64,000 nt of DNA. Origin: Escherichia coli (lineage in GTDB: Bacteria; Pseudomonadota; Gammaproteobacteria; Enterobacterales; Enterobacteriaceae). How positions within the stretch are numbered: the stretch's first letter is position 1; every line of letters begins with the position of its first letter. The stretch lies in assembly GCF_024223415.1 (NCBI RefSeq), contig NZ_CP100503.1; one strand, 5' to 3'. The notes beneath the pieces were generated by a model. It made no database searches and was not told the DNA's origin. It saw only the letters and a program-made list of their open reading frames with translations. Position numbers and translations under genes: made by a program. Shown in pieces: positions 10,761 to 16,796 of the stretch.

Positions 10761-13700
10761 CTATATTTTTCCGCCTACGCCTTTAAACTTCTCAATAAAC
10801 GAGACGATTTTCTGGAAAACTGCCTGTTTTTTCGTTTTATATTGCGGATTCAACGGACTAAGTTTTGGTAATGTTTCGTTTAATTCTGTGCCATTTTCGG
10901 TGGCGTATTCGCGTTTTAAAGACGTGCGAATATAGCGTTTTGCTGCTTCTTCATTGAGATTTTCTTCTTTTATCAATGCTTCTGCTTCACGTTGCTGTTC
11001 GCGTTGAGCAAATGTAAAGAATGCCTCAATGATACTGGCTTTGTCTGGTAAATCATCCAGGTTCGTTTGCTGAATAAAATCGACCACCAGGCCCTCTTTC
11101 GCCCGGTTTCCCAGGCTTGAACGAATTAAGCGTTTGACCTCTTCGATCATTTCGCCCTTGCCTTTATTTTGTCTGTTGTGTTCGAAAATCAGTCCAAGGA
11201 TATAATCCAGGTTTATTTCCTGAGACTTCAGCAAATCGACCTCAAAAACTACGTCATCCCAGTCAGTGGTTGATTTCTCTTTTTTCTCAGCTTCTTTCTC
11301 ACGGCGCTGCCAGTCGCGAATATCGTTATAGGCAGAACGATAATCCTGAATCTTGCGATCAGCAGGGAGACGAATTGTTTGCAATTCAGCGAACTTTTCA
11401 TCATCCACATAATGTTCTGCTTTGAATTTTTCTACCGCAACAGGATCGCTAAGATCGATTTGTTGCAGGGCTTTTAGCGTGGCAAATTCATCATAGTTTT
11501 GCAGGATGTTCTCGGCACGCAGGTATTCGCCAAACAGTTTAACGAAGTCTTTCTTCTCTTTTTCACTTTCAATACTGGTAGGGTCAGGGAACCGTTGTTC
11601 CAGTTCTGAAACTACTGTCATGAAGCCGCGTTTAGCTTCACCAGTGGCAGCATCAGTAAAGCCTTCCATATACTCTGCATAACTCTTTTCTAAAACCACA
11701 TTTTTGGTATTTTTGTCACCAAACAGCGTTATGGCATCAATGGTTGAGCGTTCCAGATCCCGGAACGTGACGATATTACCGAAGGTTTTAGTCGCGTCAT
11801 AAATGCGGTTGGTGCGGGAGAATGCTTGCATCAGGCCGTGAAAACGCAAGTTTTTATCGACGAATAGCGTGTTCAATGTTGGAGCGTCGAATCCGGTTAA
11901 AAACATCCCAACGACAATTAACAGATCGATATCCTGATTTTTAACCCGTTGGGCTAAATCACGATAGTAGTTCTGAAAACCGTTACTGTCGGTACTGAAG
12001 TTAGTTTTAAAATAGCTGTTATATTCACGAATTGCAGCGTCGAGAAACTCTTTAGCACTGCTGTCCATTGCGCTGGTATCAAAAGTTTCATCGGAAATTT
12101 CACCAATAGCATTTTGTTCTTCATTAGCGGCAAAGGAGAAGATTGTCGCAACACGTAGTGGTTTATAGGTAGCAGATTTATTAGCGGCTTCCTCTTGTAA
12201 CCGTTTAAACGTCGCGTAATAGGCTTTCGCGGCATCCACGCTGCTCACTGCCAGCATGGCATTAAAACCTTTGGAGCCAGGGAAAGTACGGTGGGTTTTC
12301 TGGCGGAAGTTATTCAGGATATATTGCGTAATTTCCTGAATACGCATGGGATGAAGGAACGCCTGCTGATTTTCAGCCGCACTCAGTTTTTTCTCGTCAG
12401 TTTCTGTCTCTAAAGACTTAAACTGTGGCCGCACATCGTTGTAGTCCACCTTGAATTTAAGCACTTTTTCATCACGAATCGCATCGGTAATTACATACGA
12501 ATGCAATTCACGACCAAATACGCTGGCGGTTGTTTCTGAGCCTAAGGCGTTTTCCGGGAAAATAGGGGTGCCGGTAAAACCAAACTGATAATAGCGTTTG
12601 AATTTCTTCTTCAGGTTTTTCTGCGCTTCTCCAAACTGGCTGCGGTGGCATTCATCAAATATAAACACCACTTGCTGATTATATACAGGCAGGTCGCTTT
12701 CTGCTTTCATCAGGTTATTGAGTTTCTGAATAGTAGTGACGATAATTTTGTTATCGTCCTTATCCAGATTTCGTTTAAGGCCTGCGGTATTTTCCGAGCC
12801 GTTGACGCTGTCTGGCGAAAAACGCTGATATTCCTTCATGGTCTGGTAATCGAGGTCTTTCCTGTCGACCACAAAGAAGACTTTATCAATAAAGTCCAGC
12901 TCTGTTGCCAGACGCGCGGCTTTAAAGCTGGTGAGGGTTTTACCAGAACCGGTAGTGTGCCAGATATACCCACCGCTTTCCGGTTTTGACCAGTTCTTCG
13001 CTGTAAAGGAACTCTTAATTTTCCACAGAATGCGCTCGGTGGCGGCAATCTGGTACGGTCGCATCACCAGTAGCGTCTGACTACTGTCAAAAACGCTGTA
13101 GTTCACCAGAACATTCAGCAGAGTATGTTTCTGGAAAAAGGTAGCGGTAAAGTCTTTGAGGTCTTTAATCAGCGTGTTGTCTGATTTCGCCCAATTCATG
13201 GTGAAGTCAAAACTGTTTTTATCGCGCTTTGTCGTGTTGGCAAAATAACGGGTATCGGTGCCGTTAGAAATGACAAACAGTTGCAGATACTTAAACAGGG
13301 AATTTTCGCTGTTAAAACTCTCTTTACTGTAACGATGTATCTGGTTGAAAGCCTCACGAATCGCCACCCCGCGTTTTTTTAGTTCGATTTGCACCAGCGG
13401 TAAACCATTAACCAGGATCGTGACGTCATAACGGTTAGCATGAGAACCCGTCTGTTCAAACTGCTGGATAATCTGCACCTTATTGCGCATGAGATTCTTT
13501 TTATCTATCAAATAGATGTTCTCAAGACGCCCGTCATCAAAAATAAAGTCGCAAATATAGTCGATATGGATATTACGGGTCTTATCCAGAATGCCATCAC
13601 TCGGGTTGTCCAGATACTGCTCCGTGAAACGCCGCCACTCGCTGTCATTAAATACCACACCATTGAGGCTCTGAAGCTGTTCCCGAACATTGGACAGCAT

Positions 13701-13877
13701 CGCCAACTGTGATTTTACCGAAATAAATTCATAGCCCTGATTCCGCAGGTCCTGAATCAGTTCCCGTTCCAGGTCCGATTCGCTCTGGTAGCTGTCGCCT
13801 GTTTGCTCAGCTTTGATGTACTTATCAAGGACGATAAAGTTATTGGATTCAGCAATGGTGTGTATCTGATGAGTCAT
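10761..13877 (-). CDS. hsdR: Type I restriction enzyme R subunit (1038 aa)
   Basis: Walker A HTTGSGKT and DEAH-box [10 protein letters not shown]; size and position after hsdM-hsdS. Confidence 0.85.
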
Positions 13878-15237: not shown

Positions 15238-16796
15238 TTCTGCACCTCGCAGCCTTCAATTTCAGCCACAATCGCATCAATATCTTTACGCAATTGGTCG
15301 ATTTTGCTGACCGTGGTTTTCAGCTCTGCATTCAACTCAGCGATATCGATAATTTCGCGAGTATCTTTCGCTTCCACATAGCTGCTCACCGACAGGTTAT
15401 AGTCATTAGCTACAACGGTCTCAAACGCGACAGATTTTGCCAGATGAGCAACATCTTCCTTGCTGGTGAATACCTGCATAATTTGTTCGATATGGGCATC
15501 GGTCAGGATATTGTTGTTGGTCTCTTTTTTGAACAGTTCGCTGGCATCAATAAACTGAACGTTGGTATCCGTTTTATGTTTGGACAGAACCAGAATGTTT
15601 ACGGCAATGGTGGTGCCAAAGAACAGGTTCGGTGCCAGTGAAATCACGGTTTCGACATAGTTATTGTCAACCAGATACTGACGGATTTTCTGCTCCGCGC
15701 CGCCACGGTAAAAAATGCCCGGGAAGCAGACAATCGCAGCACGACCTTTGGCAGAAAGATAGTTCAGCGCATGTAATACAAACGCAAAGTCAGCTTTGGA
15801 TTTGGGGGCCAGAACGCCAGCCGGGGCAAAACGCTCATCGTTAATCAGCGTCGGGTCATCGCTGCCAATCCATTTCACCGAATACGGCGGGTTAGAAACG
15901 ATGGCATCAAACGGTTTTTCATCTCTGAAGTGCGGTTCAGTCAGCGTATTGCCCAGCTTGATATCAAACTTGTCGTAGTTGATGTTGTGCAAAAACATGT
16001 TCATACGTGCCAGGTTATAGGTCGTATGGTTGATTTCCTGTCCGAAAAAGCCTTCTTCAATGATATGGTTATCAAACTGCTTTTTAGCCTGCAACAACAG
16101 CGAACCGGAACCTGCTGCCGGGTCGTAGATTTTGTTAACGTGGGTCTGCCCGTGCATAGCCAGTTGTGCAATCAGCTTAGAGACGTGCTGTGGTGTAAAG
16201 AACTCGCCGCCTGACTTACCGGCATTCGCGGCATAGTTAGAAATCAGAAACTCATAGGCATCGCCAAACAGGTCAATCTGATGTTCGTTAAAGTCGCCAA
16301 GCTTTAATCCTTCAACCCCTTTCAGAACCGCAGCCAGGCGGGCATTTTTATCCTTAACGGTGTTACCCAGGCGGTTACTGGTGGTATCGAAATCAGCAAA
16401 CAAACCTTTGATGTCTGCTTCTGAAGGATAACCGTAAGCAGAACTTTCGATAGCAACGAAGATGCTGTTTAAATCTGCATTCAGTCTGTCATTAGTATTT
16501 GCTTTCGCAGCTACGTTGCAGAAAAGCTGACTTGGGTAGATGAAGTAGCCTTTGGTTTTGATGGCATCGTCTTTAATGTCATCAGTAATTACGCTGTCAT
16601 CCAGTTTCGCATAACAGATACTGTCATCACCGGCTTCAATATAGCTGGAAAAATTTTCGCTGATAAAACGGTAGAAAAGTGCGCCCAGAACGTATTGCTT
16701 AAAATCCCATCCATCGACCGAACCCCTGACATCGTTAGCAATTTGCCAGATTTGACGATGAAGCTCTGCGCGTTGTTGAATACTTGTCATTTTCAT
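15234..16796 (-). CDS. hsdM: Type I R-M N6-adenine DNA methyltransferase M subunit (520 aa)
   Basis: SAM motif [10 protein letters not shown] and catalytic NPPY ([11 protein letters not shown]); N-terminus [25 protein letters not shown] resembles EcoR124-family HsdM as I recall. Confidence 0.85.

Follow-up and report, generated by a model that had tools for sequence, protein, structure and literature searches.

We analyzed a 64,000-nucleotide stretch of the Escherichia coli contig NZ_CP100503.1 (assembly GCF_024223415.1), hereafter called the window, which carries the backbone of a P1-like phage-plasmid, and we examined the hsd operon found in it, which codes for a Type I restriction-modification (RM) system. 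The open reading frame (ORF) map of the minus strand between positions 10761 and 16796 revealed three ORFs in the order hsdM-hsdS-hsdR, whose products are all called Type I subunits by PADLOC models, HsdM being a match to MTase_I. The gap between hsdS and hsdR is free of ORFs, hence of any prrC-type gene, and contains a promoter-like site (13971-13942, minus strand; a consensus match only), while the hsdM-hsdS promoter presumably lies in the 100 bp between hsdM and the border of P1 homology. The coordinates of these and the other features are collected in Table 1. We consider it very probable that the operon is a functional Type IC RM system, which a P1-like phage-plasmid devoid of the Type III res/mod genes of P1 carries, between pap and phd-doc, on a cassette of 6.2 kb.

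A complete operon of the EcoR124 family

The three ORFs are full length, and translation together with alignment to the EcoR124 structures showed that the catalytic motifs are intact in both HsdM (the S-adenosylmethionine-binding motif DPAAGSG and NPPY) and HsdR (nuclease residues D151/E165/K167 in EcoR124 numbering, forming the D..E.K motif; Walker A GSGKT; and DECH). A search against the sequences of solved structures found HsdM identical to EcoR124 HsdM (PDB 7bst_D) at 518 of 520 positions, and HsdR to differ from its EcoR124 counterpart (2w00_A) by 15 substitutions in amino acids (aa) 1 to 1010 (∼98.5% identity). Since identities above 90% in HsdM and HsdR serve as the in silico criterion for membership of a Type I family (PMC5399793), these values define a Type IC (EcoR124-family) system. 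HsdS aligned end to end with EcoR124 HsdS in phmmer (E = 3.7e-182), and its residues 147 to 412 are those of the EcoR124 subunit except for one extra TAEL repeat and a single substitution of Q for H, so that it shares with EcoR124 the C-terminal recognition domain as well as both conserved regions, central and C-terminal. The architecture of HsdS, with two variable recognition domains and a central conserved region bearing TAEL repeats, and the gene order, with hsdR set off by a 121-bp gap, are likewise those of the family. Type I families were classically defined by subunit complementation, antibody cross-reaction or DNA hybridisation, and because HsdM and HsdR are nearly identical to those of EcoR124, complementation with family members is very likely. 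A first-pass annotation of this DNA had described the three genes as complete, with intact catalytic motifs, and had assigned them to the EcoR124 (IC) family, naming an alignment of HsdS to EcoR124-family subunits as a check; that alignment, the identities above 98% in HsdM and HsdR and the match of the conserved regions and C-terminal domain of HsdS all bear it out.

The likeness to EcoR124II (R124/3), which recognizes GAA(N7)RTCG, extends to HsdM, HsdR, the gene order, the conserved regions and the three TAEL repeats, and the C-terminal recognition domain is the same save one residue. The N-terminal recognition domain, however, is unrelated, so that the 5' half-site should not be GAA, and the copy studied here lies in a P1-like phage-plasmid backbone, whereas EcoR124 was described on the conjugative plasmid R124. 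EcoprrI, also of Type IC, shares the family and the three TAEL repeats but carries prrC, an anticodon nuclease gene, in the hsdS-hsdR gap, where no such gene is present here.

Repeat number in hsdS and a two-copy sister allele

Tandem Repeats Finder detected a period-12 array in hsdS at positions 14676-14715 (3.3 copies, 100% matches, score 80), in agreement with direct reading, and the three perfect 12-bp tandem repeats reported in the first pass are therefore real features of this sequence. In this family, two TAEL repeats correspond to a spacer of 6 bp between the half-sites (N6, EcoR124I) and three to a spacer of 7 bp (N7, EcoR124II), which is the 1-bp shift that the same annotation had invoked, and the rule also held in the EcoDXXI/EcoR124 hybrids EcoDR2/DR3 and EcoRD2/RD3 (PMC3874165). 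EcoDXXI and EcoPrrI have three repeats each (PMC3874165; PMC12707154).

Evaluation of the repeat number by DNA search revealed that three copies is a common, and possibly the optimal, state. The exact 36-bp triple unit is present in 402 PLSDB plasmids and, counting both chromosomes and plasmids, in 432 of 5,426 complete E. coli genomes; in this genome set, two or more perfect units are found in ∼967 genomes and an hsdS of the EcoR124 family in 1,313. Four perfect units were found with a 48-bp query in at least 30 complete-genome records, mostly chromosomal (for example, NZ_CP010234.1, 14059-14106, and strain NC101, NZ_CP072787.1, 707753-707800), and one-copy alleles were found as well (P0036, P0091 and L050), whereas a five-unit (60-bp) query matched nothing, probably because it was masked by the BLAST low-complexity filter. 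The specificities of the four- and one-copy alleles would be worth reading from methylomes. Among the IMG/VR loci, 36 have two copies, 22 have three and a single one has one copy, and the P1-type slot holds 16 two-copy versus 9 three-copy loci. The idea that three copies are rare, drawn from the top 120 protein matches, whose representatives are nearly all two-copy, was rejected as a sampling effect in view of these DNA searches. The hsdS gene is hypervariable, as the 68 alleles of the IMG/VR loci L011-L090 fall into 47 groups of recognition-domain pairs, with two- and three-copy alleles in a ratio of roughly 2:1. In these loci, the window's N-terminal domain is also seen joined to no fewer than three different C-terminal domains (L019, L025 and L052).

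The exact three-copy HsdS was absent from a collection of ∼15 billion proteins, in which the exact HsdR protein was found on 45 contigs. Once one TAEL is removed, HsdS is identical to a 408-aa protein (P0001) that occurs in 69 blocks of the contig index and on many P1-like contigs. The two-copy allele is carried, for instance, by GCA_029845605.1 and GCA_027273965.1. We examined eight sister loci encoding this protein (L003-L010, from draft E. coli assemblies, e.g., GCA_029845605.1), where pap adjoins the operon in all cases and phd-doc in 7/8, the remaining locus (L009) having other genes before hsdM. All eight carry two copies of the repeat, and at the DNA level their hsdS differs from that of the window by a single 12-bp insertion/deletion (indel), with 0 mismatches; identity is 100% over hsdR (3,117 bp) and likewise over the hsdS-hsdR spacer. 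Identity with the sister loci is ∼99% over 15 kb. The 5' half of hsdM (nucleotides 27 to 789) contains 27 single-nucleotide polymorphisms (SNPs) and the rest of the gene none, which points to a recombination mosaic with a boundary inside hsdM at about window position 16000; between window positions 9500 and 16000, only one SNP and the indel distinguish the window from one of the sisters (L008). The simplest reading is that the third repeat was gained recently on the common two-copy allele, in a natural counterpart of the change from EcoR124I to EcoR124II, the additional unit having most likely arisen by slippage or unequal crossing-over. Two further pairs of two- and three-copy alleles that are otherwise the same were found in IMG/VR (L035/L043 and L040/L042).

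That the locus can vary at the repeat, as the first-pass annotation had proposed, is borne out between lineages by the sister allele, and the evidence is one of between-lineage variation on an evolutionary scale, not of high-frequency switching within a population. We find it unlikely that the TAEL array is a high-frequency contingency locus, in the manner of phase-variable Type I and III systems, at which N6, N7 and other spacers alternate within one culture and rapidly change the methylation barcode. Such a locus would agree with the perfect repeat units at the DNA level, with the natural occurrence of alleles with 1, 2, 3 and 4 copies and with the different copy numbers of otherwise identical alleles in three allele groups. 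Yet these differences, of two versus three copies, are all between lineages, and a single assembled sequence cannot reveal heterogeneity within a population. The two-copy state of 8/8 sister contigs argues for stability over epidemiological time and against very high switching rates, and a 12-bp unit repeated three times offers slippage a poor substrate next to the mono- to penta-nucleotide tracts that known phase-variable genes contain. The change between EcoR124I and EcoR124II has itself been described as unequal crossing-over rather than rapid phase variation (PMC3874165).

A cassette in a variable slot of P1-like phage-plasmids

Comparison with the P1 locus by blastn showed that P1 homology (98% identity) stops at window position 10685 (P1 84482) and restarts at 16897 (P1 87970). 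The cassette stands in for 3,487 bp of P1 (84483-87969), which contain pmgT, pmgU, pmgV, upfM, upfN, upfO, hot, lxr and humD. On one side, it is preceded by ppp (Metallophos), pmgQ, pmgR, pmgS and pap, and on the other it is followed by phd (16973-17194), doc (17194-17574), pdcA, pdcB, lpa and pacAB. The ORFs and the P1 annotation thus agree with the first-pass placement of the operon between a phosphatase cluster and phd-doc, in a slot where P1 carries unrelated genes; the AT richness that it saw in the region is true but modest, the G+C content being 43.4% for the cassette and 39.0% for hsdS, as against 48.8% for the flanks (5 kb) and 48.2% for the remainder of the window. At the borders, we found no direct or inverted repeats longer than 6 bp that would be a sign of transposition or of an integrase mechanism, only chance 6-mers.

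The occupancy of this slot is not new. According to the annotation of the P1 record NC_005856, the DNA on the downstream side of the EcoDXXI hsd locus is matched by P1 positions 84263-84482 and that on its upstream side by 87969-88647, and the DNA downstream of R124/3 hsdR corresponds to 84399-84482. Type IC hsd loci flanked by P1 DNA were reportedly described by Tyndall et al. 1997 (Mol Microbiol 23:729), a paper that several reviews cite. The operon of the window has the same borders, with P1-homologous DNA downstream of pap and upstream of phd, and is a further instance without material difference, found within a complete P1-like backbone. The layout is common: 80% or more of the surrounding 14-kb region is covered by at least 170 PLSDB plasmids, and the layout is also present in the phage records vB_EcoM-673R5 and phi456, and both doc and pap adjoin in 25 of the 59 IMG/VR loci that have an HsdM relative and a TAEL-bearing hsdS. 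On the strength of the P1 annotation, the title of the 1997 paper and the 170 plasmids, we rejected slot occupancy itself as a new observation: the placement of Type IC hsd genes here is already known, and the slot is a standard variable slot of P1-like phage-plasmids.

Table 1. Features of the hsd locus and its borders (window coordinates)
Feature	Position	Strand	Description and basis
hsdM	15234..16796	-	520 aa; N6-adenine methyltransferase subunit; stop shares 4 bp with the hsdS start
hsdS	13999..15237	-	412 aa; specificity subunit; phmmer match to EcoR124 HsdS (7bst_A)
hsdR	10761..13877	-	1038 aa; translocase and endonuclease subunit; full-length match to PDB 2w00
hsdS-hsdR intergenic region	13878..13998	-	121 bp; candidate site of hsdR's own promoter
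Region upstream of hsdM	16797..16896	-	100 bp of non-P1 DNA; border by blastn, sequence read; divergent from Pphd
TAEL repeat	14677..14712	-	three perfect copies of ACCGCTGAGCTT; aa 176-187; central coiled-coil spacer
N-terminal recognition domain	14788..15180	-	∼aa 20-150; differs from the EcoR124 domain; predicted half-site GCA
C-terminal recognition domain	14143..14595	-	∼aa 215-365; EcoR124 domain save Q for H; predicted half-site RTCG (PMC3874165 Table 2)
hsd cassette	10686..16896	-	6,211 bp of non-P1 DNA between P1-homology borders (blastn versus P1 locus)
pap, HAD-type phosphatase	10002..10508	+	last P1 gene before the cassette; P1 annotation, PF25109 in sister loci
P1 C1 operator Op88/OpmgT	10509..10525	+	ATTGCTCTAATAAATCT; P1 annotation of homologous bases, sequence read
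phd-doc addiction module	16973..17574	+	ORFs, P1 annotation; Pfam PhdYeFM_antitox and Fic in sister loci

Between pap and the cassette, the C1 operator Op88 of P1 is retained and is followed directly by the PpmgT promoter region, which, with pmgT gone, is directed at hsdR from its 3' side; the plus strand between this region and hsdR showed no T-tailed terminator. It is speculative, but antisense transcription of hsdR from PpmgT after induction could lower restriction. A rival reading, which we regard as improbable, holds that the operon, although its sequence looks intact, is silent or deficient in restriction, acting as a methyltransferase only or being held down by antisense transcription from PpmgT, and that the cassette is mainly an addiction or epigenetic module. 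The retained operator and promoter, pointing into hsdR through unterminated DNA, speak for it, as does the readiness with which Type IC enzymes exist as M2S or non-cleaving R1 complexes (PMC12707154). However, C1 should repress PpmgT in the lysogen, so that antisense transcription would matter only after induction, and all three ORFs are full length with conserved catalytic residues; the complete conservation of hsdR DNA across independent contigs, and of the exact protein on the 45 contigs mentioned above, fits purifying selection. The same border region contains a 24-aa hydrophobic ORF (10608-10682), which ends 3 bp before the limit of P1 homology, and, on the minus strand, a hairpin followed by a T-run (10579-10557) that could terminate hsdR transcripts.

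P1 has a Type III system elsewhere in its genome, as the first pass had stated, with res/mod at P1 3544-9.7 kb. This segment (P1 3470-9742) is absent from the corresponding place in the window, where 2.1 kb of other DNA is found instead (32304-34452), and because it is missing, hsd may be the main restriction system of the element. The 2.1-kb replacement carries an Ant-like antirepressor ORF (33305-34417; phrog_63), and three more Ant-like paralogues are located at 29786-30850 (minus strand), where P1 ref is replaced, 41753-42835 (plus strand) and 43000-43800 (plus strand).

Other changes affect the backbone. The homologue of the antirestriction gene darB (35179-40068, minus strand) codes for 1629 aa versus 2255 aa in P1, the N-terminal ∼645 aa not being in the window, and its P1 homology ends at window position 40011 (P1 15301), the exact start of a repeat bearing TnpB (border 40007-40011). 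This IS200/IS605-family element, whose 410-aa protein belongs to an RNA-guided nuclease family, is present three times (27406-28638, minus strand; 40007-41720, plus strand; 62287-64000, plus strand), and two of the copies form direct repeats that are 99.5% identical and 22.28 kb apart. A 900-aa ORF (59631-62333, plus strand) with Dcm-like and Dam-like methyltransferase regions runs at its 3' end into a TnpB element. The direct repeats lie against the methyltransferase ORF at its 3' end and against the shortened darB, which suggests a rearrangement of the backbone mediated by insertion sequences. The 900-aa ORF also shows a match to an intein C-terminal splicing region (aa 398-419), and its aa ∼65-430 match intein-bearing ribonucleotide reductase and primase families, making an intein inside a P1 dmt-like gene possible.

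Predicted target and possible consequences for sibling elements

In the EcoR124 family, the 5' half-site is read by the N-terminal recognition domain and the 3' half-site by its C-terminal counterpart; in EcoR124I they are GAA and RTCG (PMC3874165). A search using only the window's N-terminal domain returned many relatives, among them a 209-aa S subunit from Neisseria gonorrhoeae (P0176, 166 member sequences), which shares 80% identity over 133 aa, or 71% over 198 aa with the spacer helix counted in, and which ends in a G-tract-encoded GG directly after its own LEAT-type repeats. This protein fits the published description of NgoAV HsdS1, a subunit of 208 aa, cut short at a polyG tract, whose target is GCAN8TGC in the homodimer and GCAN7STCA in the fusion with HsdS2 (PMC9577141), and on that account we predict a GCA half-site. 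Naming the N-terminal target from EcoDXXI or EcoprrI was considered and dropped, as the protein searches gave no named match.

The predicted target is GCA(N7)RTCG, with solid grounds for its RTCG half and its 7-bp spacer, and the sister allele with two repeats should recognize GCA(N6)RTCG. Type IC enzymes place N6-methyladenine in each strand of their bipartite target, the two modified bases being separated by 7 or 8 bp, and the interval predicted from GCA(N7)RTCG is 8. In the methylome literature, a search for N6RTCG, N7RTCG and CGAY motifs returned only EcoR124 and an unrelated Klebsiella system (CCAN5RTCG). NgoAV, which is also of Type IC, resembles the present system in the N-terminal domain; its S gene is truncated by the polyG tract so that the subunit works as a homodimer, its spacer repeats are LEAT rather than TAEL and it switches by frameshift, not by in-frame gain or loss of repeats (PMC9577141). 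A parallel in design is offered by EcoDR3 and EcoDR2 (TCA N7 RTCG and TCA N6 RTCG), which likewise combine a foreign N-terminal domain with the EcoR124 RTCG domain and a spacer set by the repeats (PMC3874165 Table 2), but those were built in vitro with the TCA domain of EcoDXXI, whereas the pair described here is natural and has another N-terminal domain.

An assembly or sequencing artefact in the third repeat, hiding a true two-copy allele is highly improbable, for although the three-copy version of this recognition-domain pair was found nowhere else (protein collection, PLSDB and the 5,426 genomes), a 36-bp array is far shorter than any read and untypical of collapse or expansion, the insertion is exactly one in-frame unit and three-copy alleles of other recognition-domain pairs are abundant.

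We give about even weight, for and against, to the proposal that the window captures a fresh natural change of specificity in a phage-plasmid, in which the gain of 12 bp on a 6.5-kb tract that is otherwise the same as in a widespread lineage would have moved the target from GCA(N6)RTCG to GCA(N7)RTCG and set the element and its host apart, in immunological terms, from their nearest relatives. Several points limit the predicted target and the direction of the change. The GCA half-site is predicted from 80% identity, and P0176 was matched to NgoAV by description, not by accession; recognition domains at ∼80% identity usually, but not always, keep their target. The direction of the change, from two copies to three, is taken from parsimony alone. 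This recognition-domain pair was not found at high identity in PLSDB or in the 5,426 complete E. coli genomes, so no published methylome can be borrowed. In the window, the N7 motif occurs 19 times (19.7 expected) and the N6 motif 19 times (19.2 expected), and as neither is depleted, the window lends no internal support to either.

We propose that HsdS would have its target set by the NgoAV-like N-terminal domain, the EcoR124-like C-terminal domain and the length of the coiled coil, three TAEL turns giving the 7-bp spacer. HsdM2-HsdS would methylate adenines in both half-sites of the bipartite target, and R2M2S would translocate DNA with ATP hydrolysis and cut it away from unmodified sites, following the mechanism of EcoR124I, in which M2S methylates and R2M2S translocates and cleaves (PMC3874165, PMC12707154). 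Members of the family enter naive hosts since cleavage requires a second HsdR to join the non-cleaving R1 intermediate (PMC3874165, PMC12707154). In this way, the system would shield the lysogen from foreign DNA and mark the DNA of the element and its progeny.

The system, an ordinary one of the EcoR124 family, was already known, as were its position and the spacer rule. What the sequence adds is an hsdS allele whose specificity is predicted to be new, and an uncomplicated pair of two- and three-copy alleles from nature, which repeats the EcoR124I/EcoR124II case with another recognition domain. Because the two alleles are otherwise identical in DNA, they are well suited to testing whether each TAEL turn amounts to 1 bp of spacer, and they also permit testing whether a change in repeat number isolates sibling phage-plasmids. 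If the change of specificity is true, restriction could act in both directions between the element and its P1-like siblings.

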